A stretch of 57,622 nt of DNA from an uncultured archaeon (GTDB lineage Archaea > Asgardarchaeota > Thorarchaeia > Thorarchaeales > Thorarchaeaceae), in assembly GCA_964610875.1 (NCBI GenBank), contig CAZSWP010000026.1:1-57622 (forward strand). Direction: 5' to 3'. Made by a program: the position numbers and the translations under genes. Below the pieces are notes generated by a model, which was not told where the DNA came from, did not search any database, and saw only the letters and a program-made list of their open reading frames with translations. Positions within the stretch are counted from its first letter, which is position 1; every line of letters begins with the position of its first letter. Below are positions 5,974 through 50,963 of the stretch, piece after piece.

Positions 5974-7035
5974 ATGCAATCCACTCATCTCATTATCCCA
6001 TTATTTATTTCAACAGCAATCACAGCATTTGCAATGGCCACGATTCTCCGTTCTTGGTGGAAACGACGATTGACACCTACGCTTCTCTATTCAATTGCAG
6101 TGATTCTATTTTCAGGAATGGCATTGGACCTGTTACTTGACCAAGTATATATTCCCTTTAGAAGCTGGTTCATCGAAATCAATGGCCATGTACTATGGTG
6201 GTCGAATGTTCTCTTGGCTTTCTTCATCGTTGGGGGATTCCTTTTCTGGTATTTTGCAATCATGTACTCTGAGTATGATACACCCCCAACTAGAGCGATT
6301 ATTGTCAGTTTCATTGCGGGAGGGGCTTTGCTAGGAGAGATTGTAAAAGGAGATTGGTCAGAACAAATACCGTTAATCATAGAAGCTCTTGCTTTCATAA
6401 TTCTATCAGTTGAAGTCATTCACTACGGTAGGAAGGTCATAAGAACTACAGAAGAGAAGCAAGAAAAAATCTGGATATTCATGTATTTCCTTGGTTTTCT
6501 TTTATGGATCATCGCAGGACAAATTGGGATTGTCTTAGGAAACCTTCCGAGTTTCGAGTTTATTGCTGATTTCTGGACAATCCCTTACAGCATGGGTTTG
6601 CTTGTCATAGCAATTACTGTAGCTAGAAATCCAAGACTGTTGTTCATAAGTGAAGCACGTGCATTGGATTTACTTGTGCTAGACAAATCCGGGACACTCA
6701 TTCTCGGCCACCGAATCAGTAGACACGAAGATGCTATTGACATTGAACTCATGGGGTCTGCGATGTCAGGTGTGATTTCGCTAATGAAAGAGATGCTTGC
6801 CGGCGAAGGAGATTTGCAGCGTGTTGATCATGGTGACATTAAGATTCTTGTAGAGCGAGGACTCTATTCCACATTTCTATTGGTTGTCACAAAAGAAACT
6901 GCAAGATTCCGTCAGTCATTAAGAAACATAGTACTGGAGTTCGAAGCGAATTATAGAAGCGAATTGCTGGAAGACTCAGGGATGGTAACACAATACAAGA
7001 ACTTTCAAGGAAGAATCGATGAAATATTTGAGTAA
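5974..7035 (+). CDS. 7-TM membrane protein with C-terminal longin-like domain
   Basis: Seven hydrophobic segments in about aa 5-217. The C-terminal domain (LLVLDKSG...DIELMGSAMSGVISLMKEM...VDHGDIKILVERG...FEANY...G) matches the Asgard longin pattern and aligns with the second longin domain of 43530..45503. Confidence 0.75.
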   Translation: MQSTHLIIPLFISTAITAFAMATILRSWWKRRLTPTLLYSIAVILFSGMALDLLLDQVYIPFRSWFIEINGHVLWWSNVLLAFFIVGGFLFWYFAIMYSEYDTPPTRAIIVSFIAGGALLGEIVKGDWSEQIPLIIEALAFIILSVEVIHYGRKVIRTTEEKQEKIWIFMYFLGFLLWIIAGQIGIVLGNLPSFEFIADFWTIPYSMGLLVIAITVARNPRLLFISEARALDLLVLDKSGTLILGHRISRHEDAIDIELMGSAMSGVISLMKEMLAGEGDLQRVDHGDIKILVERGLYSTFLLVVTKETARFRQSLRNIVLEFEANYRSELLEDSGMVTQYKNFQGRIDEIFE

Positions 7036-7099
7036 CTATATCCAAAGGCTAATACAATTGACATCTAGATTCTAAAATATTCAGGAGACTCTATAGAAA

Positions 7100-8116
7100 A
7101 TGAATTCAGTAAAGGTGTTATTCATCTGGGATGTACGGAAAGAGCTTAGAGAGTATCTTCAGAAAGGACTTCAGGACATTGATAATCTCGAGTTAGTATT
7201 TCTAGATGAAGCTGCTGAAGAAGAATATCTCTCAAGTGCAGAATATGTTGATGCAATTGTGGGATGGAGACCAACTGACGAATTACTTGAAAAAGCGGTC
7301 AAATTGCGTCTTTTCATCAATCCTGGTGCGGGAGTACAACATTTAGTTCATAGATTCAAGAAATTAAATGAAACAAGAAAAATCACACTTGTCAATGGGC
7401 ATGGTAATTCATACTTCACCGCACAACATGCAGTAGCTCTGCTTCTTGCAATTATGAACAAAGTGGTTCCACATCATAATTGGATGACTGAAGGGAAGTG
7501 GCGGATGGGAGATAATGAAGGAAGATCAACTCCGCTTCGGTCTCGAAGAGTCGGCTTGTTGGGTTATGGAGCTGTAAATAGCAAGGTGCATAGTTTCCTA
7601 TCGGGATTCGATGTTGAATTTCATATCCTTAAACGCACATGGGAAAGTGATACAGAATTACCAACTGAAGTCGTAAGATACACACCAAAAGAAATGCATC
7701 AATTTCTAGAAGAGATTGATACTTTAATCATAGCAGTACCTCAAACACCTGATACAGAGGGGCTGATTGGTCTAGAAGAGCTTAGATTACTTGGTCCAGA
7801 TGGATTCCTAGTAAATATGGCTAGAGGTAGTGTGATTGATGAAGAGGCTCTTTATAATATTTTAAAGAATAAGACAATCGCAGGCGCTTCAATCGATGTC
7901 TGGTATGAATATGGACCTGATGAAGATGAGTGGGGGAGAAAATACCCTTTCCATTATCCGTTCCATGAGCTGCAGAATGTCGTTCTATCTCCACATAGAG
8001 GCGCATCGCCAATGGAAGACTTGAGAAGATGGGACGAGGTCATTGAAAATCTATCAAGGCTAGCAAAGAGTGAAACAGAGTTCATGAATACCGTTGAGCT
8101 TGATAGAGGCTACTAA
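7100..8116 (+). CDS. D-isomer-specific 2-hydroxyacid dehydrogenase
   Basis: GAGVQH, VGLLGYGAV, PQTPDTEGLI, VNMARG, IDVW and SPHRG motifs. Confidence 0.9.
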   Translation: MNSVKVLFIWDVRKELREYLQKGLQDIDNLELVFLDEAAEEEYLSSAEYVDAIVGWRPTDELLEKAVKLRLFINPGAGVQHLVHRFKKLNETRKITLVNGHGNSYFTAQHAVALLLAIMNKVVPHHNWMTEGKWRMGDNEGRSTPLRSRRVGLLGYGAVNSKVHSFLSGFDVEFHILKRTWESDTELPTEVVRYTPKEMHQFLEEIDTLIIAVPQTPDTEGLIGLEELRLLGPDGFLVNMARGSVIDEEALYNILKNKTIAGASIDVWYEYGPDEDEWGRKYPFHYPFHELQNVVLSPHRGASPMEDLRRWDEVIENLSRLAKSETEFMNTVELDRGY

Positions 8117-39140: not shown

Positions 39141-40106
39141 TCAATTAGCTTGGGTAGCAATGGCCTTTGCTGGACCCTGACCTTTTACCTTGTTCATTCT
39201 CTCTAATACTAAGGTTATGTGATCTTTCATATGTTCAGGTACAATAACCAGATTCTCTTCTGGTTTTTCTTCTAGAACTCGAAGTATCTTCTCTAGCGTG
39301 TTCTTCTTCATCTGTCTGCAAATAGCTCCTTCCCAAAGAGGGATTATAATCTTGTCAGGATGGGCTGCTTGAAGTTGATGGACTAAACCCATCTCAGTTG
39401 CAATGATGAACTTCTTTGCATCAGATTCAGCTACTGTGTTTGCCATCATTCCCGTTGAACCAACCATATCAGCGGCTTCCTGTACTTCTTTGCGACACTC
39501 AGGATGTGCGATTGCAATAGCATCAGGATGTTCTTCCTTCAATAGAAGTAATTGGGCAATATCGAATTGATTGTGAACGTAGCAATGCCCTCTTGGTTCA
39601 ATATCTATAATTTCAACGCTAGTGTGTTTTCGCACATGCTCCGCAAGATTAGCATCAGGACCAAATAATACTGATTCCACACCGAGATTCTCTACAACTT
39701 CAACAGCACTACCAGAAGTGCAAATATAGTCGGTTTCCGATTTGGTTTCTGCAGTGGTATTAACATAGACAATAACAGGTGCATCAGGGTGCTGTTCCTT
39801 AGCTTTTCTAAGTTTGTCAGCATTCGCAAAAGCTGCAAGAGGACATAGTGCTCCAGGTTCAGGGATATATACATGAGTCCCATTTGATAAAACAGCAGTC
39901 ATCTCTGCCATGAATCTAACACCACAGAATATAATCATATCAAAACCACTAACATCTGCACTCTTTTGAGCAAGTTGAAGGGAATCGCCAACAAAATCAG
40001 CAATCTCTTGTATATCCATCGTTTGGTAGTTATGAGCTAGTATCAGTGCGTTCTTTTGCTTTTTTAATTCCAAGATTTTCTTTTGGAGTTCGCTGCATTC
40101 TTGCAA
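39141..40106 (-). CDS. nadA: quinolinate synthase
   Basis: ILAHNYQ, GDSLQLA, FCGVRFMAE, CPLA, YVNT, CTS, GPDANL, CYVH, AHPEC, GST, ATEMG and C..MK. Confidence 0.95.
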   Translation of the reverse strand: MQECSELQKKILELKKQKNALILAHNYQTMDIQEIADFVGDSLQLAQKSADVSGFDMIIFCGVRFMAEMTAVLSNGTHVYIPEPGALCPLAAFANADKLRKAKEQHPDAPVIVYVNTTAETKSETDYICTSGSAVEVVENLGVESVLFGPDANLAEHVRKHTSVEIIDIEPRGHCYVHNQFDIAQLLLLKEEHPDAIAIAHPECRKEVQEAADMVGSTGMMANTVAESDAKKFIIATEMGLVHQLQAAHPDKIIIPLWEGAICRQMKKNTLEKILRVLEEKPEENLVIVPEHMKDHITLVLERMNKVKGQGPAKAIATQAN

Positions 40107-40309: not shown

Positions 40310-41371
40310 GTGGCCAGTAATGAAGCCCATACAAAGGATGACACAAAATCAGTTGTGACTGAGATTGAACAAGCTGGAGGAGAAGTGATCCTCGAAGAGC
40401 ATTCAGCTGAAATTCTAAAGAGAACGGGGATTCCACTAAAGAGATTAGATGCAGATGTTTTAGCAATTGTAGGGTCGGATAGACATCTTCTCTCTACACT
40501 ACTTAAGATAGGAGAATCATCCCTACCTGTCCTTCCAATCTCTTCAACTGGTCAACCAACCTTCTTTTCTGAAATCACTGTGAAAGGATTTGAAACAATA
40601 GTAGAGGACTTGATATCAGAACAATGGGTAATAGAAAAACGATTGAGACTTGTTGGAAATATCGGAGGGCGAAAAACGCCTCCATTCATCAATGATCTTG
40701 GATTATTTTGCAAGAGAAGTGCAACACTATTAAGATATTCACTTTACCTTGACGGAGAGATGTTTTGGAAAGATGGCAGTGATGGCGTATTAATTGCAAC
40801 CCCTACAGGTAGCACAGGATACTCTATGAGCGTAGGAGGTCCAGTTATTCTTCACCCCGCGCATGTTATGATGTTTGTTTCCGTAAACAGTACGAATCCA
40901 GCCAGACGACCTTTGATAGTTTCTGACAGCATGGAGATTCAGGTTAGAGATTTAGACAGTTCTATAACAATTGAAGCAATTGTTGACGGACAGCGCAGAA
41001 TGAAAGTTAAAGACGACCCGGTTCTCGTCAAAAGGGCTGATTCAGATGCGACCTTTGTAAAATTTGATGAAGAGAAACTTGCAGCATTGAGAGGAAAGTT
41101 ACACAAGAAATCACTCTCACTGGATAACGCTCATCATGAAATACCACCAAGTGCAAAATTGGTTCTGAAGGTCTTGGAGTATCAAGACCAACTGACTCAA
41201 AAGCAAATTATCTTAGAAACCATGCTACCCTCACGAACCGTGAGATATGCTCTTTCAATCCTAATATCAGAAGGAATAGTAAAAAAACAAGTATCGCTTC
41301 GCGATTCCAGACAAGCGCTTTATAGCGTTGTTAAGCAAAAGAAGAGTACTGAAGAGCTCAAAGAGAAATAG
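40310..41371 (+). CDS. NAD(+)/NADH kinase family protein with C-terminal winged-helix domain
   Basis: ND motif, DGVLIATPTGSTGYSMSVGGP and DG; the GGDG motif reads GSDR; C-terminal PPSAKLVLKVLEY...LTQKQI...RTVRYAL..L...G wHTH. Confidence 0.85.
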   Translation: MASNEAHTKDDTKSVVTEIEQAGGEVILEEHSAEILKRTGIPLKRLDADVLAIVGSDRHLLSTLLKIGESSLPVLPISSTGQPTFFSEITVKGFETIVEDLISEQWVIEKRLRLVGNIGGRKTPPFINDLGLFCKRSATLLRYSLYLDGEMFWKDGSDGVLIATPTGSTGYSMSVGGPVILHPAHVMMFVSVNSTNPARRPLIVSDSMEIQVRDLDSSITIEAIVDGQRRMKVKDDPVLVKRADSDATFVKFDEEKLAALRGKLHKKSLSLDNAHHEIPPSAKLVLKVLEYQDQLTQKQIILETMLPSRTVRYALSILISEGIVKKQVSLRDSRQALYSVVKQKKSTEELKEK

Positions 41372-41384
41372 ACACGTGATAGAT

Positions 41385-43526
41385 ATGGCTTTATCAAAGA
41401 ACATTCTTCCAAAAGCAAAGCATTCAGTTGTAGATGATTTCCTTAAAGAAGGTTACAAAGACGCAGAAATATCACTAAAAAACCGAGAATTGGATAGCAG
41501 TTCCGATGTCTTGGGTCAAAATCGTGAACTTATGGCATTCACGATTATTCAAGCTGCAGGGGAATCTATAGAGGGGATTGAGAAAGCTATTGCCGTTAAT
41601 GAGAAACTTCAGGAAGTCTTTAGGGATATAGTGGATGATGTTGAAGAAGATATGATGATTTCATGTCTCTCTTTATGTCTTTATGGTCATATAATGGAAA
41701 TATATTCTGAAGAAGACTTCCGCTATGTATACCGCTATACACTGAAGGATTCAAAGAAAACAGAGGTAGTTAAGGATTGGTTGCTACGTGCATTACTAAT
41801 TCTTGGAGGATTGAAGAAAGATAAACCAACTGAGATTTTGAGTGAAGTAAGAAACTGGATTAACTTTCTTGGAGCCCAGTTGTTTTCTCCAAACGAATTA
41901 TCTGAACCTGCAGAAGAGTTACAGATGGATATGGAAGATGCATTGCTGTCAGAAGAAGTCAGGTTGGTAGAGGCATTAAGAAAATATTCAGATTATCTTG
42001 AGGAAGCTGTCAGAAACAAACCATACTTTGAGATGTATAGTCAATCAAATGAATGGCTTCCAGAGGTGCTTTCACATCATCTTTTGAAGATATATCGTAA
42101 GAAAGTCTACAGTTCTGCTAAAGATATTATTACGCCAGTTATGGACATCGAAGAGGCTCATGAAACTCTGAAGAAACATTTCGAAGAGCAAGAATTTAGG
42201 AGCAATGAAGACTCAGTCTTTCCAGTACGGCTACAAGAGCTTGAGAATCCTCCACCAGCTGATGCAGTTGATCCAGTTGTATTCGAGATGATTCCTCAGA
42301 AATTGCGAGTTCAATTGCTACCATCTGTTGCTTATTCAGTAAGTACAAAGCAGATAGAGATTATTTTCATCGGAGGACCTAGAATTGGTCATAGTGGAAT
42401 TCTGATTAAAACAGACTCAGGAGGTATTCTTATGGACTATGGGATGTCTGTTGCAAATCAGATGATTCCAAAATGGGTGCCAGAGATAGAAATGATTGAT
42501 ACAGTTTTGGTCACTCATTCACACCTAGATCATGTTGGTGCTCTTCCTATTTTATTTGATAGTTATTCTGGAAAGTGGTGTTCTACTAATCTAACTGCAG
42601 CAATCACTATGACACTGTTAGAAGATGCAAAAAAGGTTGGAACACCCATGCCTCCAAGACGATATGATAAATGGGACATGGTATCAAGATTCAAACAGAA
42701 GAATATAGATATCGTATCGCGAAATCATGCACCTCTTGAGGTTGGAGTCACAAGTGAAATTGGTCCAGGTATATTAGTCACTCCTATAGAAGCTTGCCAC
42801 ATTCCAGGGAGTGTGGCTTACATTGTAGATATAGAGGGAGTAAGGATTCTATATACCGGGGACTTCAATCTTGACCAATCAATGCTCTTTCCCGGGGCGA
42901 GTTTACCCAATGATTGCAATGTTGTGATTTTTGATGGTACGTATTGGGACAGAGAGGATTTCGACCGATCGAAAGTAAGTGAAACGTTTTCAGACGTAAT
43001 TCAAAATCACGGACCTGTTATCATTCCTAGTTTTGCTGTAGGTCGTTCTCAAGAAGTGTTAATGATTCTTGAGAATCTCGGAATCACAAAAAGTAGAAAT
43101 GTCATCGTTGCCGGAATGGCTGAACAAGTAACAAAGACTGCCGGGTACAAAGGGAATTGGGATAGTCTAAAGAAGAACAAGTATGAACTTGACTCAGAAG
43201 ATGTGATAGTGGCAGGAGGCGGAATGATGGGAGGAGGTCATGCTAGGAATTTCTTCAACATGTATCGTGATGACCCCAAAGCAGCAGTGATTCTCTGTGG
43301 ATATCTTGCCCCACGGACTCCAGGCTGGAATTTAGCAAATGGACACGAACCGTGCAAATGTCATGTGGAGTATGCTAGGTTGAGTGCCCATTCATCCGGA
43401 AGTAACTTAGAGCAGTATATTGATTCATGCGATGGTAAAAGAGTGATAGTTCACACTCCTGTAGAGAAGATTACTAAGAAACTCACAATGCCTGAATTCG
43501 GATCTAGAATAATCTTGAAAACCTAA
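41385..43526 (+). CDS. beta-CASP metallo-beta-lactamase ribonuclease with long N-terminal helical extension
   Basis: MDYG, THSHLDHVG, CHIPGS, YTGDF, DGTY, PSFAVGRSQE, GMM.GG, LSAHS and VH motifs; about 320-aa non-KH N-terminal region. ORF track start is 41328. Confidence 0.85.
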   Translation: MALSKNILPKAKHSVVDDFLKEGYKDAEISLKNRELDSSSDVLGQNRELMAFTIIQAAGESIEGIEKAIAVNEKLQEVFRDIVDDVEEDMMISCLSLCLYGHIMEIYSEEDFRYVYRYTLKDSKKTEVVKDWLLRALLILGGLKKDKPTEILSEVRNWINFLGAQLFSPNELSEPAEELQMDMEDALLSEEVRLVEALRKYSDYLEEAVRNKPYFEMYSQSNEWLPEVLSHHLLKIYRKKVYSSAKDIITPVMDIEEAHETLKKHFEEQEFRSNEDSVFPVRLQELENPPPADAVDPVVFEMIPQKLRVQLLPSVAYSVSTKQIEIIFIGGPRIGHSGILIKTDSGGILMDYGMSVANQMIPKWVPEIEMIDTVLVTHSHLDHVGALPILFDSYSGKWCSTNLTAAITMTLLEDAKKVGTPMPPRRYDKWDMVSRFKQKNIDIVSRNHAPLEVGVTSEIGPGILVTPIEACHIPGSVAYIVDIEGVRILYTGDFNLDQSMLFPGASLPNDCNVVIFDGTYWDREDFDRSKVSETFSDVIQNHGPVIIPSFAVGRSQEVLMILENLGITKSRNVIVAGMAEQVTKTAGYKGNWDSLKKNKYELDSEDVIVAGGGMMGGGHARNFFNMYRDDPKAAVILCGYLAPRTPGWNLANGHEPCKCHVEYARLSAHSSGSNLEQYIDSCDGKRVIVHTPVEKITKKLTMPEFGSRIILKT

Positions 43527-43529
43527 TGC

Positions 43530-45503
43530 TCAAGCTACAACCTCTAGAACCCCGTCAAGTACCAATTTAGTCGCAACAAACTTCATCGCTGGAAGACTTA
43601 CATTCAGCTTCCTGACAACGTCCTCAAGCGCAGTATTCCCATCACATAATTCAACGAACTTGATAACAACAGGACCATATGCCTTCACAGTATCAGAATC
43701 AGGGTCAGTCTTCTTTTTCAGATGGCTGTTTGGATTTATCTCTACTTGGAAGTCAATCCAACCGTATTTCTGCATTATTTGTAAACAACCCAATACGGTT
43801 TCTCTTGGTAGGTCAAGGCTTCGTACGAGTCCACCCACGGTAGTAGTACTCTCAATAGCTGTCTTCACTTTTACAACGGCATGCCCAACCTCACGATTAG
43901 CAAATGGAAGAGGTCTACCTGCTTCTCTTGCTCGGACCACATAGTCCAAGCTTATGGGACGCAGAGGTGCCTCAGATACAATATCAAAAACAGAACTCTC
44001 AAACACTACATTATCGCCTTCCCATCTATCCCAAATGTCTGAATATTTCTGCTCAATATCAACAAGTAGAGAAGCCATCAGCCTCCTGTTTTTGTCTTCT
44101 TCAAGGTCATTATCTACAATCAATGCTAGAACAAAATGCTTGGATTTTTCAACCATGACGAGATTTCCTTCGTGCTCGATGGTTTCTAGTGCGTTTGTCT
44201 TGCCTCCAGTGCCATCAGCTTCTGCATCAAGTCCACCAAAGGAATCCAATGCAGAAATCAAAGATGTAACAGCTTTAGTGTCGAAGACTTCCTCAGAGTA
44301 GTCTAAATGATATGCAATGTCATACATTCCTTGATTCTGAACAATTAGTAAAAGTGTTAGAATCTTACTTCCACGATGTATTTGTTTAGCCACTAACTCC
44401 GCATGAGATTCCGATGAACCAGCAACAGCACCAGACTCAGTTGCAGCTTCGACTTCTTCTACATCAGATGCTACCATTGATTCCATTTTAGTGGACTCAG
44501 TTTCTGATACCGCTTCACCATCTTCTTGATAGGGGACATCCTCGAATCCCGAATCACCTTCAGGTCTAGAAGCGTGTTCTCCTAATTCGGGTCGCTCTGA
44601 TTCGTCAGTCTTTCTTCTTACAGTGATCATCTCACTAATGGAGCGATTGGGAAGTACTACTCCTGCAGTCTTTGCACAGACTTCAAGCATGAAGCGTATG
44701 AACTCCTCTCGACGAGCTTTATCCGTAGCTACCATGGAGAAAGTTGTTGCTCCCAAGAGACGCTGAATCTTGTCACCCTTCATTGATTCGGGAAGGTCCT
44801 GTTTGTTAGCAACAATGAAGAGTGGTACAGCAGGTGCTTCCTTTCTTATGTTACGAAGTAGCGTCTTTGTTTGCATAACATTTCTAAAACTAGAGTCAGT
44901 GATTAAGAAGATTGCATCAGTCCCCTGGAAGTAGAACGCCCAGAGATCCTGGAATACGGCCTGTCCTGCGAAGTCCCATATTGTTACAAGGAACGTACCA
45001 AACTGTATCGTTTCGGAACTATCCACTGCGACATTAATCGTCGGTACGTATCCTCCAGGAGCGGGTTCCCTACCGAAAAGTAGACGCAATAATGTACTCT
45101 TACCAACACCACCAGAACCGACGAAAGAAATCTTGAATCGAGTGAAAATGAGTTCACCCAAGATGTCCTCCATATTATCCTTGATGTAATCGATACTGTT
45201 ACCACGTAGTGCAGTGGTGATTCTAGCTGCACCTTCTCGTACCTTGTATTTGATGGTACGATCTTCATCTCGACCATCAGTTGCAAATATTAGCAGTAAT
45301 TCATCACTAACAGGACCATGGAATACTTTGTGCTGGTCTACAAATACCGGAGTGTCTTCAGCAAGACCCTCGGTTGTCTTAAGGTCATTGTAACCATTCA
45401 GAAACTCTTTGATATCAGCCTCAAGGAAATCTATCTTCCAAAATCTGGCACGGACTACAACATCCCCTGTTTCTTTGTCAATGAGTAGGACGTTGTGAAT
45501 CAA
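43530..45503 (-). CDS. longin - Arf-like small GTPase - acidic linker - longin - tandem wHTH protein
   Basis: G1 GSGGVGKS, G2 YVPT, G3 WDFAGQ, G4 NKQD; LWAFYFQGTDA is Arf-like; longin-pattern domains on both sides; two C-terminal wHTH repeats. Likely TTG start at 45503 after AGGAG (ORF track start 45563). Confidence 0.85.
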   Translation of the reverse strand: MIHNVLLIDKETGDVVVRARFWKIDFLEADIKEFLNGYNDLKTTEGLAEDTPVFVDQHKVFHGPVSDELLLIFATDGRDEDRTIKYKVREGAARITTALRGNSIDYIKDNMEDILGELIFTRFKISFVGSGGVGKSTLLRLLFGREPAPGGYVPTINVAVDSSETIQFGTFLVTIWDFAGQAVFQDLWAFYFQGTDAIFLITDSSFRNVMQTKTLLRNIRKEAPAVPLFIVANKQDLPESMKGDKIQRLLGATTFSMVATDKARREEFIRFMLEVCAKTAGVVLPNRSISEMITVRRKTDESERPELGEHASRPEGDSGFEDVPYQEDGEAVSETESTKMESMVASDVEEVEAATESGAVAGSSESHAELVAKQIHRGSKILTLLLIVQNQGMYDIAYHLDYSEEVFDTKAVTSLISALDSFGGLDAEADGTGGKTNALETIEHEGNLVMVEKSKHFVLALIVDNDLEEDKNRRLMASLLVDIEQKYSDIWDRWEGDNVVFESSVFDIVSEAPLRPISLDYVVRAREAGRPLPFANREVGHAVVKVKTAIESTTTVGGLVRSLDLPRETVLGCLQIMQKYGWIDFQVEINPNSHLKKKTDPDSDTVKAYGPVVIKFVELCDGNTALEDVVRKLNVSLPAMKFVATKLVLDGVLEVVA

Positions 45504-45616
45504 GTCAGATGTTTCTCCTTGGTGATGTGGTTTCAAGTTATCTTGATATGAAAACCTTTTCAAGCATTCTAGTAAGTATATCTAAGATGAAGCTTTCCTC
45601 GATGAACTAATACTTT

Positions 45617-47302
45617 TTATTTTATCTTAATGATATCTCGTTTGATTAATTCCCTTAAAACTGTCTGTAGCACGCTTTGCTCGATACCAAGATTCTTTGC
45701 GATGTCCTTGACTTTTGCTTCTCCTGATATCTGGGACATTATAGATTCAATGTGTGTGTACATCTGTTTCATTTCATCATCAGGTTTTGCTATAGCAATC
45801 AGAGTATCTTCATCATCTAACTTGACCTTAAAGTCTATTGCATCCAGGGTTTTCAGCATATGGAGTGCTCCCAGTGTCATTTGAGGACCCGTTCCGCGAA
45901 CTAGCTGAGATAGCTTGTAATCACCACTAAGACTACTCCAGACAGCTCTTAGGAAGTCACGAACATTTTCAGATCGAAATTTCTCCCACCGAGGTTCCTT
46001 CGTACAGACTGGAGTGACTGATTGAGGCAGATTCTCAGGCGGTAATGTAGCAAGTAATTTCAGTGTGAACGGAACAGTTTCATATGGATTTGTCGAGTCC
46101 ACAACATCTTCCGGAGATTCAGCTTTCCAGAGTTCTGGCAAGAATGAAAATCTTTCTCTTAGATCCTCAACATCATGACCTCTTCCTGTTACTAGAGCAA
46201 ATATCAGATTCTCGAATTCGATAAGGATGTAGATTAACTCGCCAGTTTCAAATACAGAGGTTTTGATCTCTTCATCTTCTCCTACATCAAATAGAGTAAT
46301 GGCTGCAATCACATTAGGTGCTCTTTCAAGGACTGTCGATGGTTCTTCGTAGTAATGAGAATACAGAGATGCACCATTCTTTCTATCAACAACAAAGAAA
46401 GCTTGGTGTCCTAGAATCTCTTCATCAACAATTTCCTCCTTGCTCTTGATTACTATTTCATCTGCAATCATTTTTTCCATTGCTAATTCGGGATGATAAT
46501 TTGTGAGACCAAGCATAGAAAGGGCTGATACCAACAGATAGATTGGTCGAGATGAAACAGCATCACACAGAATTACGTTCAATTCTAGTTCCAGTGATCT
46601 AGTATATTCAAGTTCATTGTCACTTGCTGGTACTACAAGAATGGGCGCATTTGGTTTTTCTCCTATGAATCTAACCGCTTCGTGTATCTCATCTAATGTA
46701 GTGATTGTGCCACCAACCACAAGAACAAATCCATCAGCAATTGCTGAAACTGTTTCGAATTGGGATTCCTCCAATTCATCAAAGCCGAAAAGGTGTGCCA
46801 TCAATGAGAAAGGGCCAATCTGAAGAGTCTGAGGATTAATTGAATCTTCTCTTAAATAATTCCAGAGCTGATTGATCGCATCCATCGTTGGTGTTGATGT
46901 CGTAAAATCTCTAGGATATATGACACACAAATGAATCGGTGCCAACAATGTGGATTTTGCAACTTCCTCAAATTTCTTCGACATATTTCGGGTTCGCAGA
47001 GTTTCTTCCATACCTGTAAGAATATCACTGAGTTCTCTACTTTTTCCTACAATATCATCATCTACCTTATGGTCATCAGTGATAATGATTGTGAGCAAAT
47101 GTTCACCTATTCGATAGAGAAGTGTTTTTTCACCATTAACATCAATAATAGACTCGCCTTCACCAGATCCATTAGTTACAAGGGAGAAGTATACTTCAAT
47201 GGCACGTGCCAACTTTGTATCTTCAATTTTATCAGTTAGAAATGAAACAGTTGATAGAGTCCTGCCCGAAAATAGATCATGCAAGACAGCATGTGTAATC
47301 AA
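45617..47302 (-). CDS. longin - degenerate (pseudo) GTPase - longin - tandem wHTH protein, paralogue of the downstream gene
   Basis: Collinear with 43530..45503 (ITHAVLHD ~ IHNVLLID; QTLQIGPF ~ ETIQFGTF; ADGFVLVV ~ TDAIFLIT; PNAPILVV ~ PAVPLFIV; DAIDFKV ~ GWIDFQV) but lacks GxxxxGK, DxxG and NKxD. GGAGG RBS. Confidence 0.75.
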   Translation of the reverse strand: MITHAVLHDLFSGRTLSTVSFLTDKIEDTKLARAIEVYFSLVTNGSGEGESIIDVNGEKTLLYRIGEHLLTIIITDDHKVDDDIVGKSRELSDILTGMEETLRTRNMSKKFEEVAKSTLLAPIHLCVIYPRDFTTSTPTMDAINQLWNYLREDSINPQTLQIGPFSLMAHLFGFDELEESQFETVSAIADGFVLVVGGTITTLDEIHEAVRFIGEKPNAPILVVPASDNELEYTRSLELELNVILCDAVSSRPIYLLVSALSMLGLTNYHPELAMEKMIADEIVIKSKEEIVDEEILGHQAFFVVDRKNGASLYSHYYEEPSTVLERAPNVIAAITLFDVGEDEEIKTSVFETGELIYILIEFENLIFALVTGRGHDVEDLRERFSFLPELWKAESPEDVVDSTNPYETVPFTLKLLATLPPENLPQSVTPVCTKEPRWEKFRSENVRDFLRAVWSSLSGDYKLSQLVRGTGPQMTLGALHMLKTLDAIDFKVKLDDEDTLIAIAKPDDEMKQMYTHIESIMSQISGEAKVKDIAKNLGIEQSVLQTVLRELIKRDIIKIK

Positions 47303-47361: not shown

Positions 47362-48591
47362 TCAAGTTTCCGTGATTCGTTCTTTAATGAATTGTTCATA
47401 ATTCAATTCACCACGCATTAATTTCTGATATCCTGTCAATTCATACTTATCAGGATAATATTGCTCCCAGTCACCTGAACCGCTATCTAAAGATGGTAAG
47501 TCGGATATTGCTTCGAAAACTGTAATTGGAGTTAGAAGTCCGGTGTCTGTGATTTCTGGAGGGTATCTTCGTCTGCCTCGTTTGACTCTCTCGAAATCAG
47601 GTTGAGGAAGGGTTGGAATAATACCATTTTTTGAAGCGATGATGAATAATCTCCGCCTCCTTTGTGGTACTCCATATTGCTCTGCATATAAGATAAAATA
47701 ATTGGAGTAATATCCGATAGCATCAAGAGCAGCAATTATACCATCTAATGCTTGTCCCCCACCCATTCCTTTTAGACCAACAACATTCTCGATTAGAATA
47801 AAGTCAGGCTGCAATCTTTGAGCGAACCTAATCATACTGAACACAAGTCTGTTTCTGGAATCAGAGATATTCCATTTCCCAGCGGTTGAGAAACCTTGAC
47901 AAGGAGGACCCCCTGCAAGAATCCTAATATTTGACCCACACAGATAGTTTTTGATTCTGTCAAAGATTGACTCAAATTCAATAATCTGTGATAAATCGCT
48001 TTCTATAATGAGTGCATTTGGATGATTGTGAGCATATGTTTGAAGCATGTTGGAATTGTTATCTATCCCTATGAGTGGGTTATGACCAGCATTGGATAGA
48101 CCTAATGAGAGACCTCCACATCCGCAGAACAAATCAATCACATTGCCTTTCGGAATTCTGCCACCCAATGCTTTCGCAAGTAAGGGAGGAACTGCATTCC
48201 CTATCTGTTTGAATATTGAAGAGTATGTTCCTAGGAATTTGAAAGAATCGGGAAAAGACTGTAGCCGTGCAGCTTCTCGGAAAGAAATCAGTCTATCTTG
48301 AATCGGATGGATAAATGTTCCATTTCCAGGACGATTGAAGTATGTGTTAATTGTATAACTTGGTAGGTCATATCGTAATCGACCGTAGTAAGTAGTTCTT
48401 CCTCCTGATTCACGTATTTGAGATATCCTCGCAGACTTCTTGGCAACATGAAGAGGTATGTCTTTCCAATTTCCTCCTAGAGGAATCGACTGAATTACCT
48501 CCATATCCAAATCGCTAATCCTTGGACTAATATGATTGTAGAGTTTCCTACTGACTACACCTTCTTCTTGGTGAGTAGTAGTAACTGTCAA
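47362..48591 (-). CDS. circularly permuted DNA (cytosine-5) methyltransferase, Alw26I/Eco31I/Esp3I type
   Basis: Motifs IX-X (REAARLQSFPD, QIGNAVPP) come before motif I (DLFCGCGG), IV (GGPPCQGFS), VI (ENV) and VIII (QRRRRLF). Confidence 0.9.
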   Translation of the reverse strand: MTVTTTHQEEGVVSRKLYNHISPRISDLDMEVIQSIPLGGNWKDIPLHVAKKSARISQIRESGGRTTYYGRLRYDLPSYTINTYFNRPGNGTFIHPIQDRLISFREAARLQSFPDSFKFLGTYSSIFKQIGNAVPPLLAKALGGRIPKGNVIDLFCGCGGLSLGLSNAGHNPLIGIDNNSNMLQTYAHNHPNALIIESDLSQIIEFESIFDRIKNYLCGSNIRILAGGPPCQGFSTAGKWNISDSRNRLVFSMIRFAQRLQPDFILIENVVGLKGMGGGQALDGIIAALDAIGYYSNYFILYAEQYGVPQRRRRLFIIASKNGIIPTLPQPDFERVKRGRRRYPPEITDTGLLTPITVFEAISDLPSLDSGSGDWEQYYPDKYELTGYQKLMRGELNYEQFIKERITET

Positions 48592-48647
48592 ACGCTTCCT
48601 TTCTCCAATCTAGAAGTAGCTAACGGGTCTTATAGAAAGTTGTGTTA

Positions 48648-50963
48648 TTACAATTCAGAATAATGGGTCTTCACTTCTGATTGGTATTTTCGAGAACTTC
48701 TTTGATGTTTTAGTATTCTTCTCCCCTTGGAATATGGAATGCTATACAATTTGAAAACGAGGGCTTCAATCCTTGATGTATCGTTTGACTCTTCCTTCAT
48801 AAGAGACCGAACCTCTTTTGATATCATATAAGCAAATTCACTGGTTTCATCTTTGGAACTGAAATCTGGAATCGGAAGCTGATCTATTTCTCTATTCGAA
48901 ACATGATTATTGGCATTTGTTACTGAGAATCGCCAATTCAATAAATCTGAGTTGAGAAGCCCTAAGAGATAATTGTAGAACATTGAATCATGATTTTTGA
49001 GAATAATGTAATTGCATGAGTTAGCCAAGACATGATCTGGTTCTATATATGTAAATTTCAATCTCCATCTCTGCATCTGATTAGAAACCTGTTGGCATGC
49101 AATTCGATAGTTCTCATGATGATTTACTCTTATTGAAGATGGTTTCTTCTCTATTAACCTCTCAATGTCCACATATTGTAAACTATTCTTCCCACGCTGT
49201 AAATCCAATCTATATCTTAACAGATTTGCACCTCGGACAAGAGGAATACCCTCATCCCTTTCGGAGATTAACTCACGGTCTAGAGTCAAATCAACCTCTC
49301 CACGGTAATTCGTTATATTTGGATTATTCCTGATTGATTGATGTTTGTGCATTCTATCGAGAATGACCCAATCTTCTTTCCTTACTTTTGGAATTGCCAT
49401 ACTCTGACCAGTTATTGCACAAATTTTCGAAATTGGTATACGCACAGGAGATAGGAGTTTACCGTCATCAATACTATCTAATAGAAAAGATGCATTCAAA
49501 AATCCTGTTTCATTGTTTCTCCTTACAACTCCAATGCAGAGAGATTGAACGACATCAGGGAATAAAGCTGCACTCTCTGAAAACTCAAAGAGGGATTCTA
49601 ATTGATTAGATGTGAGTATCTCCTGTCTCAATTTATGAGCGGAATAGTCAGCAATAATGGTGGAAGGTACAATAAAGGCAATTCGTCCATTTCTTCTTGT
49701 TAATGATAGAGCCCTCTCCATGAATAATCTGTAGGTATTGATGCTGTAGATACCACTAAGAGGATATACTCCACTATTTCGAAAATAATTTACATCTTCT
49801 TCAAGAGTTTTGAGATGTTGCTCATAAACAGAGGATGCCATATCAGGTCTCCTTGCACTCTTCCGATGTCTTCCGAACTCCACTTTATTTGGCTTCAAAC
49901 GTTCATATGGAGGATTGAATGCAATCAAATCAAAACCATGCTTTTCTTTTGAAAATATGATAGGGAACTCTGATTGCCAATCAAATGGCAAGCGGGATGA
50001 AGGATTTTCAAAGTAATCTTCTAAACTAGATTCTGGCAATGATGATGATATCAAAGAATTGCCTTGTTTCAGAGTATTTCCTAAGAGTGAATTTGAAGGG
50101 GAAACCTGTGTCGAATCAGACAGAAGTTGTAAAGAAACATCCGTGAGTTCTAATGCAGCCAAATCCAAATCTACGCCATAACAATTGTTTCTGATTCGTT
50201 TCAATATCACGGAATCAACCACTCCAATTGAAGATTGAAGTTTCATGGCAAAGCGAATTATAGCTTGAAGAAACGCTCCAGGACCACAAGCGGGATCTAG
50301 AAAAGTCATTTGTTGCATTCTATCGAGTAATTCATGTACAGTCATTCTACCTTTGTTAATCAGTTGCATTTCTTCTCCAAATGCTTTCTCGATTATAAAA
50401 TCAGAAACCGGAATAGGAGTGTAATAAGCTCCCAAAGCACGCTTCATATTCATCTGATCAGGCGTGATTGTTCCAGATGCAATACCATGAATTATGGACA
50501 TCATATCAATAACTTTGCTAATGGTCATTGATTCAAAATCAATCCAATTCACTTCACTGTCCAATCTCTTCAATACGTGTTCTGCATATGCTATAACCGT
50601 AGGGCCTTCTATCCCGCTCGTTCTAGCATATAATGATGGATTGAAGAAAAGGGGATTTGTATCTGAAACTAAATCCATAGTATCTGTACCTGTTATTTGA
50701 CCAAGACAATAGTAAAGTGATGACAGCCGACTTACTTCTGCTCTAAGAGTCTTGTTGTGACCTGATTCTTCAATTATGGACTTACTACCTTTGTAGAAGG
50801 TTTCGAAAAGAAGATGGCTCAACTTTCGAACTCGAGTCACAACACTACAGCTCCAATTTCTTATTTCACTTGTGCACAAAAAGAGTTTCTCCTTGGTCTC
50901 TTCAACATATATTCGATGGCATCGAAGGGGAGGTTTGTTAACAGCTGCCAAAAACCTAGACAC
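48648..50963 (-). CDS. N6-adenine DNA methyltransferase, Alw26I/Eco31I/Esp3I-like (gamma class)
   Basis: GAYYTP, LDPACGPGAF, YGVDLD, NPPYERLKP, FIVPS, RGEVDLT and RIACQQVSN...LANSCNY. Start codon uncertain; it may be GTG near 50840. Confidence 0.85.
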   Translation of the reverse strand: MSRFLAAVNKPPLRCHRIYVEETKEKLFLCTSEIRNWSCSVVTRVRKLSHLLFETFYKGSKSIIEESGHNKTLRAEVSRLSSLYYCLGQITGTDTMDLVSDTNPLFFNPSLYARTSGIEGPTVIAYAEHVLKRLDSEVNWIDFESMTISKVIDMMSIIHGIASGTITPDQMNMKRALGAYYTPIPVSDFIIEKAFGEEMQLINKGRMTVHELLDRMQQMTFLDPACGPGAFLQAIIRFAMKLQSSIGVVDSVILKRIRNNCYGVDLDLAALELTDVSLQLLSDSTQVSPSNSLLGNTLKQGNSLISSSLPESSLEDYFENPSSRLPFDWQSEFPIIFSKEKHGFDLIAFNPPYERLKPNKVEFGRHRKSARRPDMASSVYEQHLKTLEEDVNYFRNSGVYPLSGIYSINTYRLFMERALSLTRRNGRIAFIVPSTIIADYSAHKLRQEILTSNQLESLFEFSESAALFPDVVQSLCIGVVRRNNETGFLNASFLLDSIDDGKLLSPVRIPISKICAITGQSMAIPKVRKEDWVILDRMHKHQSIRNNPNITNYRGEVDLTLDRELISERDEGIPLVRGANLLRYRLDLQRGKNSLQYVDIERLIEKKPSSIRVNHHENYRIACQQVSNQMQRWRLKFTYIEPDHVLANSCNYIILKNHDSMFYNYLLGLLNSDLLNWRFSVTNANNHVSNREIDQLPIPDFSSKDETSEFAYMISKEVRSLMKEESNDTSRIEALVFKLYSIPYSKGRRILKHQRSSRKYQSEVKTHYSEL

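Follow-up and report, generated by a model that had tools for sequence, protein, structure and literature searches.

Switches built from a small GTPase and domains of the longin/roadblock superfamily are known in several forms. The Rag/Gtr proteins (RagA/B-RagC/D; Gtr1-Gtr2) are two paralogous, functionally asymmetric chains, in which a G domain is followed by a longin/roadblock-superfamily domain; the NPRL2-NPRL3 subunits of GATOR1 (Npr2-Npr3 in yeast) are likewise paralogous chains, with a longin followed by winged helices; and in the tri-longin guanine nucleotide exchange factors (Mon1-Ccz1, Fuzzy-Inturned/CPLANE and BLOC-3) a third longin takes the middle position. MglA/MglB and the actinobacterial conservon (CvnB, a roadblock protein; CvnC, a DUF742 winged-helix protein; CvnD, a GTPase) bring together a Ras-like GTPase, a roadblock/longin-superfamily domain and a winged helix of the DGxxT type. 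Contact between longins is the classical mode of dimerization of Rag, MglB, TRAPP and NPRL proteins. Asgard archaea contain many small GTPases and longin/roadblock proteins, and which regulator serves which GTPase is a stated problem (PMC10933270). In MK-D1, 'Ca. Prometheoarchaeum syntrophicum', multidomain Rag/Arf-like GTPases with longin-G, G-roadblock and longin-G-roadblock architectures have been described, including an operon pair predicted to heterodimerize (Tran et al. 2024, PMC10933270), while an NPRL2-like family has been reported in most metagenome-assembled genomes (MAGs) of Thorarchaeota (Liu et al., bioRxiv 10.1101/2020.10.19.343400). The present analysis concerns a tandem pair of genes, one encoding an Arf-like GTPase and the other a pseudo-GTPase, on contig CAZSWP010000026.1 of assembly GCA_964610875.1; the whole stretch of 57,622 nucleotides, hereafter the window, comes from a Thorarchaeaceae (Thorarchaeia) genome that is 95% complete.

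The pair is reasonably likely to be a heterodimeric molecular switch, the product of a tandem duplication within Thorarchaeia. Of its two proteins, the downstream one would be the working Arf-type GTPase, placed in a multidomain chain where an acidic flexible linker joins the longin-G half to a longin/winged-helix half; the upstream protein would be a full-length copy that has kept the fold, has lost nucleotide binding and serves as a constitutive partner. Its pseudo-G domain would dock on the alpha3/alpha4 face beside the G4 motif of the active G domain, and the single nucleotide-dependent subunit would then determine how a platform of four longins and four winged helices, to which effectors bind, is arranged. 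We infer both this switch logic and the role of the longins and winged helices as platforms for regulators or effectors. The locus itself spells out the pairing, with a GTPase fused to a longin/winged-helix module, a dead paralogue next to it and a predicted docking of the two. It also provides a concrete, expressible two-protein archaeal system in which to study the action of longins on a G domain in cis, the origin of a pseudo-GTPase and the possible GTPase-activating (GAP) activity of NPRL-like modules.

The two open reading frames (ORFs) are co-oriented and are arranged as follows:

45617..47302, minus strand: pseudo-GTPase paralogue, the upstream gene, an intact ORF of 561 amino acids
45504..45616, minus strand: intergenic spacer of 113 nucleotides, which on direct reading holds the Shine-Dalgarno sequence AGGAG of the GTPase gene (45519-45515) and A+T-rich stretches
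43530..45503, minus strand: active GTPase paralogue, 657 amino acids from a TTG at 45503; the longest ORF extends to 45563 (677 amino acids)

The true start of the GTPase gene is most likely TTG 45503, giving 657 rather than 677 residues, because in the family alignment the orthologues begin with MIHNVLLI, the same residues that are found at this codon; AGGAG precedes it by 11 nucleotides. Thus, the downstream gene of an earlier, preliminary description of the window holds as an ORF (43530..45563), but not in its start: the stretch 45504-45563 at the beginning of the longest ORF is probably superfluous, and a 668-residue database call is probably too long as well. GTPase residue numbers given here refer to the 657-residue form, except for the Pfam Arf span. 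The pseudo-GTPase gene also starts with TTG, and GGAGG lies 8 nucleotides before it, in agreement with the intact 561-residue ORF and ribosome-binding site noticed previously. Nearly all public relatives are labelled Candidatus Thorarchaeota, in line with the organism guessed in the preliminary description. In the databases, the downstream gene is annotated as 'ADP-ribosylation factor-like protein' or 'GTP-binding protein', the upstream one as 'hypothetical protein'. Among public sequencing runs, only two DNA runs of one microbial-mat study contain the stretch, and no RNA run is listed.

When the two proteins are compared by BLASTP, only the C-terminal ~184 residues align (E 3e-4, 20% identity), the G-domain stretch falling short of significance (E 4.8). 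As BLASTP missed the paralogy of the G domains, a comparison of profiles was needed: hhalign of the two family profiles covers both full lengths in 534 columns (prob 98.8, E 9.2e-17) and recovers the strand pairs that the preliminary description had picked out by eye, ETIQFGTF/QTLQIGPF, TDAIFLIT/ADGFVLVV and PAVPLFIV/PNAPILVV. The sole large gap is the deletion, in the upstream family, of the P-loop and of the residues after it. At the level of family profiles, the two genes are therefore confirmed as end-to-end paralogues.

AlphaFold2 (AF2) models built from the family alignments (mean predicted local distance difference test, pLDDT, 82.8 for the pseudo-GTPase and 66.7 for the GTPase) and structure searches give the same domain order for both proteins, namely longin, G fold, longin and two winged helices:

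GTPase: longin, 1-118; Arf-like G domain, 119-292; acidic disordered linker, 293-376; longin, 377-515; two winged helices, 516-657
Pseudo-GTPase: longin, 1-119; degenerate G fold with the P-loop deleted, 120-268; longin, 297-424; two winged helices, 425-561

In both proteins the longins show the order strand-strand-helix-strand-strand-strand-helix-helix together with structural similarity to known longins, and the G region adopts a Rossmann-like fold; the acidic disordered linker of ~85 residues after the G domain is found in the GTPase only. Structure comparison by VIA places the longins closest to those of COPI, AP, SNARE and sedlin proteins, not of NPRL proteins, and feature and shape searches of the ESM Atlas return only the proteins' own clusters from Thorarchaeota and Promethearchaeota, plus COPI and AP longins. 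Tandem paralogy, co-orientation and a common domain order, all claimed from the sequence in the preliminary description, are thus borne out.

By its motifs and by Pfam, the downstream protein is an intact Arf-like GTPase of the Ras superfamily. Pfam Arf matches residues 141-275 of the 677-residue reading (E 2.3e-18, 66.7 bits, cut-off 22.3), the best PDB sequence match is Arf1 (E 1.4e-14), and the GxxxxGK[ST], DxxGQ and NKxD motifs, here GSGGVGKS, WDFAGQ and NKQD, are kept in 30/30 relatives. The N-terminal amphipathic helix that in canonical Arf and in many Asgard ArfR proteins directly precedes the G domain is absent, a longin of ~118 residues standing in its place. Pfam Gtr1_RagA (PF04670) reaches 20.4 bits, under its cut-off of 22, versus 66.7 bits for Arf; some orthologues carry precomputed Gtr1_RagA matches, graded 'faint' only. 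In the pseudo-GTPase family neither Walker A (G1) nor NKxD (G4) is found in any of 36 members, while the G fold is kept in the AF2 model; it is this combination of a kept G fold and vanished nucleotide-binding motifs that makes the upstream protein a pseudo-GTPase and supports its reading as a dead G domain with retained fold. The same two readings, an intact Arf-like domain downstream and a fold without nucleotide-binding motifs upstream, had been made from the letters of this one genome, and they extend to both families.

Pairing of the two proteins is predicted by modelling. The pseudo-GTPase (residues 1-400) was modelled with the longin-G part (1-292) and the second longin (377-515) of the GTPase, the input holding no winged helices. 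The complex obtains a score of 0.70, the best of three controls 0.14. The mark against which the score is read was reached by 58/80 solved complexes and by 2/110 mismatched pairs, and is approximate here, own alignments and three chains having been used. Runs share at least 68% of the contacts, the partner has a pLDDT of at least 74, and replacement of the longin-G chain brings the score to 0.14. The confident contacts join the alpha3/alpha4 face beside the G4 motif of the GTPase (residues 206-251) with residues 231-273 of the pseudo-G domain. The confident interface takes in 12 pseudo-GTPase residues, of which seven (L231, R235, L245, D247, A262, P271 and E272) are at least 90% conserved and four further ones are conserved in 26-31 of 36 sequences. 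This enrichment within the pseudo-G domain (hypergeometric p 9e-5) is independent of the fold prediction, although positions of the hydrophobic core may add to it. The model thus supports binding of the two proteins, G to pseudo-G. Of the heterodimer proposed in the preliminary description, the pairing and a G/pseudo-G interface stand as a prediction, with no confident longin-longin contact obtained.

The upstream family is small and local. A profile search among 1.84 billion cluster representatives finds 48 clusters only, which are its own orthologues and fragments, followed by the downstream family; of 301 Asgard genomes, none outside the window's own GTDB family has a full-length gene of the upstream type, against 71/76 within it. 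The full architecture was not found in the other Asgard families searched within this set and is limited to one order of Thorarchaeia. Matches to both genes are listed for 48 genomes; in 41 of these the GTPase gene directly follows the pseudo-GTPase gene, with contig and strand in common, so that the two are, as anticipated, conserved neighbours; in the remaining 7/48 the genes are on different contigs, and the coordinates place the pseudo-GTPase at a contig end in at least four. Genus g13 (e.g. G248:C8:11713-13580 and G227:C19:44080-47647) has ~1.9-3.5 kb of extra DNA between the two genes. The GTPase is conserved at ~70% identity (79% mean column identity), its G domain being almost invariant, and is among the most constrained proteins of the lineage; the pseudo-GTPase is conserved at 35-40% identity (54% mean column identity), with 39 invariant columns.

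In a sister family (genome G112 and the contigs carrying P0232) there is no pseudo-GTPase; its single GTPase shows all four parts of the domain order and lies in the same neighbourhood of beta-CASP, NADK and NadA genes. The simplest course of events is that the gene was duplicated in tandem in the family's ancestor and that the upstream copy then lost nucleotide binding; a lone GTPase in the sister family is as expected if a single-copy ancestor, possibly a homodimer, was duplicated. Alternatively, the sister family may have lost the partner. In the sister-family loci L016, L017 and L019 a CUB-PPC-caspase (Peptidase_C14) gene precedes the GTPase gene and a conserved ORF of 178-184 amino acids follows it; this ORF was considered as a remnant of the partner and rejected, as it shows no similarity (hhalign prob 0.3) and matches no Pfam family.

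The C-terminal half of the GTPase has stand-alone relatives. A second tandem pair in the same genome (contig C48, 15098-15901 and 16030-16830; L025:6072-6917 and 6983-7846 in locus coordinates, plus strand) encodes proteins of 281 and 287 amino acids, 37% identical to each other (E 4e-58), which consist only of a longin and two winged helices. The family is kept in Thorarchaeota at ~65% identity. Its homology to the C-terminal half of the GTPase is clear (hhalign prob 99.7, E 8.8e-27, 266 columns), and the GTPase is thus read, by profile similarity, as a fusion of a longin-G GTPase with the stand-alone longin/winged-helix module. The stand-alone family is probably the putative 'NPRL2-like' family of Thorarchaeota of Liu et al., or part of it, although the fused proteins, or both, may also have been meant. 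Of the two pairs, it is the C48 one that makes the better candidate for a heterodimer like NPRL2-NPRL3. Upstream of it are a gene for a coiled-coil helix-turn-helix (HTH) protein and a radical-SAM gene, a context common to the sister family, where one copy is found.

Resemblance to Rag and NPRL proteins appears on the present searches to be one of fold and architecture only. With the pseudo-GTPase model, Foldseek returns Gtr2, Gtr1, RagA and RagC first (E 1e-6), then Fuzzy/Inturned, Mon1/Ccz1 and NPRL chains; with the GTPase model, NPRL3, NPRL2 and Npr chains come first (E 1.7e-5 to 1e-4, prob 1.0, ~350 columns). TM-scores are low (0.14-0.34 overall, 0.14-0.23 for NPRL chains against the GTPase model) because the domain arrangements differ. 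In PDB searches with three profiles, winged helices of NPRL2/Npr2 are found among the top six matches, the others being generic winged-helix regulators; with E values of 0.2-0.6, these matches were discarded as evidence of homology. Pfam NPR2 (PF06218) matches one of 36 pseudo-GTPase family members (E 0.022), and in the C-terminal halves none of NPR2, NPR3 and HTH_NPRL3 (PF24064) was found. Genome-wide six-frame searches with NPR2 and HTH_NPRL3 give at best 11.2 and 16.6 bits, under the cut-offs of 27.5 and 27.2; the best matches to both are the stand-alone relatives on another contig, their first winged helix in the case of NPR2, and HTH_NPRL3 matches of the same strength occur in 5/14 control genomes. 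Pfam IML1 (DEPDC5), searched up to E 1 in the 95%-complete genome, finds no match. A GP motif before strand 2 and a catalytic arginine finger have been described for GAP longins (PMC12290439). The beta1-beta2 loops read TGDV and QGMYD in the GTPase and SGRT and NGAS in its partner, with no GP dipeptide; G-x-P (GMP, GEP) is common in orthologues and stand-alone relatives.

Compared with the MK-D1 GTPases, the pair has in common a G domain annotated as Arf-like and flanked by longin/roadblock-type domains, adjacent paralogous genes and a modelled heterodimer (PMC10933270). It differs from them in having two winged helices after the second longin and a P-loop-deleted pseudo-GTPase, in a confident predicted contact from G to pseudo-G rather than from roadblock to roadblock, and in its restriction to one order of Thorarchaeia. 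With the Rag/Gtr proteins it shares two paralogous chains, a G domain followed by a longin/roadblock-superfamily domain and functional asymmetry; however, both Rag subunits bind nucleotide, whereas the upstream paralogue is without G1 and G4 in 36/36 sequences, and Rag proteins dimerize through their C-terminal roadblock domains, the confident contacts predicted here being those from G to pseudo-G (with winged helices left out of the model). Furthermore, the G domain is of the Arf type (ANKQDLP, WDFAGQ) and is accompanied by an extra N-terminal longin and by C-terminal winged helices. The order of longin and winged helices seen in the AF2 models is that of the likewise paralogous NPRL2 and NPRL3, which, in contrast, have no G domain, and the pair has neither significant sequence similarity to them nor a DEPDC5/Iml1 companion. 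Weak Pfam DUF742 matches, in 5/36 pseudo-GTPase family members and in the stand-alone relatives, recall the conservon; unlike in MglA/MglB and the conservon, where the parts are separate small proteins, they are here fused in one chain and duplicated, with one copy dead and no sensor kinase as neighbour. The tri-longin exchange factors differ in turn, since the place of their middle longin is here taken by a G or pseudo-G domain, with winged helices in addition. All in all, the pair is a lineage-specific variant of GTPase/longin switches already known in Asgard archaea. It looks like, and perhaps works like, a Rag-type asymmetric dimer with NPRL-type modules, and by these tests it is a member of neither family.

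Upstream of the pair two methyltransferase genes complete a row of four co-oriented genes:

47362..48591, minus strand: circularly permuted C5 DNA methyltransferase (Pfam DNA_methylase E 1e-60), directly upstream of the pseudo-GTPase gene
48648..50963, minus strand: N6-adenine DNA methyltransferase of the Eco57I/TaqI_C type (Eco57I E 1.4e-22, TaqI_C E 2.9e-10), the first gene of the row

The two enzymes (47362-50963, minus strand) are accompanied by no nuclease and are vertically conserved (51-56% identity, 15/16 genera), which is unusual for restriction-modification genes; the pair of methyltransferases is lost in genus g4 and partly in G236. On the other side, a plus-strand gene (41328-43526), convergent with the GTPase gene, encodes a 732-residue metallo-beta-lactamase/beta-CASP protein whose N-terminal ~350 residues match no Pfam family; a fusion of NAD_kinase_C with a winged helix (40310-41371) and NadA (39141-40106) join it in a neighbourhood that is conserved beyond the family, including the sister family. 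A function in anti-phage defence was also considered and rejected, as PADLOC gives no match with E below 4e-3 for either protein and the locus is a fixed chromosomal one in 71/76 family genomes.

The row of genes suggests another explanation of the pair, as the GTP-dependent arm, for DNA binding or regulation, of a DNA-methylation module of four genes (N6-adenine methyltransferase, C5 methyltransferase, pseudo-GTPase and GTPase), the winged helices of which would read or target DNA, e.g. in an epigenetic or restriction-like function. In its favour, the genes of the row in the window are separated by gaps of ~55-115 nucleotides, their order, including the position of the N6 enzyme, is the same in three distant Thorarchaeota MAGs, the C5 enzyme is present in 60/80 family genomes (15/16 genera), mostly directly upstream of the pseudo-GTPase where found, and the last winged helix of the pseudo-GTPase resembles DNA-binding HTH domains of the TrmB/MarR type (E 1.3e-4). 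However, genus g4 (3/3 genomes, 96-99% complete) has the pair with no methyltransferase found, G236 retains only the N6 enzyme and the sister family has its GTPase with neither of them. The C5 methyltransferase is a frequent and not an obligatory neighbour. The beta-CASP/NADK/NadA synteny on the other side is even wider, with no evident functional link, so that gene order is simply stable in this region. With median net charges of -5 to +2, the winged helices range from near neutral to acidic; the pseudo-GTPase and most domains of the GTPase are acidic, and only the G domain is basic. Neither a nuclease domain nor, as said, a PADLOC match was found. A methylation module is accordingly improbable. 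It is also quite unlikely that the two proteins do not pair at all, the upstream copy being either a neofunctionalized scaffold with partners of its own or a slowly decaying duplicate, and the adjacency a consequence of duplication. Several observations do weigh on this side or against the heterodimeric switch: the GTPase of the sister family occurs alone, and the partner is thus not essential to its fold or basic function; the partner evolves much faster (35-40% versus ~70% identity); genus g13 has the two genes further apart; several of the conserved interface positions are occupied by hydrophobic residues, which could belong to the core; the model of truncated chains, devoid of winged helices, shows no confident longin-longin contact; and the GTPase model is mediocre (a predicted TM-score of 0.41 besides the pLDDT of 66.7), which leaves the relative arrangement of its domains uncertain. 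On the other hand, decay is ruled out by an intact full-length ORF in 71/76 genomes and by 39 invariant columns, and the complex prediction, which holds up against its controls, puts the interface on conserved residues. As to the longins, the missing confident contact does not speak against such a contact, since residues that the model does not name are uncertain.

The remaining alternative takes the pair as a true evolutionary counterpart of the Rag-GATOR1 layer, with longin/winged-helix halves orthologous in origin to NPRL2/3 as a built-in GAP on the fused GTPase and with the dead and the live subunit corresponding to NPRL3 and NPRL2 or to RagC and RagA. This is what the top Foldseek matches of the GTPase (NPRL3, NPRL2 and Npr chains, E 2e-5) and of the pseudo-GTPase (Gtr/Rag chains, E 1e-6), the presence of NPRL2/Npr2 winged helices in the top six of three independent profile searches, the best six-frame NPR2 match of the genome in the first winged helix of the stand-alone relatives and the NPRL2-like family of most Thorarchaeota MAGs (bioRxiv 10.1101/2020.10.19.343400) would lead one to expect. 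The sequence matches are, however, all insignificant (E 0.16-0.6) and under the Pfam cut-offs, with HTH_NPRL3 equally matched in control genomes; the TM-scores of 0.14-0.23, the COPI/AP/SNARE/sedlin-like longins and the Arf-like G domain point elsewhere; no GP dipeptide is seen and IML1/DEPDC5 was not found; and the limitation of the architecture to a single order speaks against an ancestral module of the eukaryotic line. A true counterpart is, on balance, rather unlikely. There is a similarly slim chance that the locus exemplifies how a layer of the Rag/GATOR1 type could be assembled, by fusion of an Arf/Rag-like GTPase to an NPRL2/3-like regulator and duplication into a live and a dead subunit that heterodimerize, the stand-alone C48 pair being the archaeal equivalent of NPRL2-NPRL3 and acting on the fused GTPase. 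If true, the NPRL link would bear on the origin of eukaryotic nutrient signalling; if false, the locus is still a clean case of a duplicated subunit that has lost catalysis and is kept beside its live counterpart in almost all genomes of the family.

The preliminary description had seen in the pair a candidate prokaryotic counterpart of the Rag-GATOR1 layer, a step beyond the resemblance that finds no support in the Arf-like G domain, in the NPR2 and HTH_NPRL3 matches below cut-off or in the search with IML1, which gave no match. Its NPRL2/3-like winged helices survive in fold and architecture, NPRL2/3 chains heading the Foldseek list for the GTPase model, and not in sequence (E 0.2-0.6; Pfam below cut-off). 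The system is also not wholly undescribed, given the published NPRL2-like proteins of Thorarchaeota (bioRxiv 10.1101/2020.10.19.343400) and the longin-G-roadblock GTPases, with an operon pair predicted to heterodimerize, of a Lokiarchaeon (PMC10933270). At the same time, none of the computable outcomes that it had named as refuting it was obtained: the middle domain models as a G fold, the genes are conserved neighbours and NPRL2/3 chains are the top Foldseek matches.

Returning to the heterodimeric switch, its parts have wider relatives, in that longin-G Arf-like proteins of 287 amino acids are found in another Asgard family. Among the loci of other Asgard families with further pairs of GTPase and longin genes, L021 (G118:C85) holds a cluster of longin-Arf-like GTPases (287 and 380 amino acids) with an unannotated neighbour of 298 amino acids, and in L022 (G220:C1), of a further Asgard family, a Rab-like GTPase is directly followed by a Fuz_longin_1-like protein of 256 amino acids.

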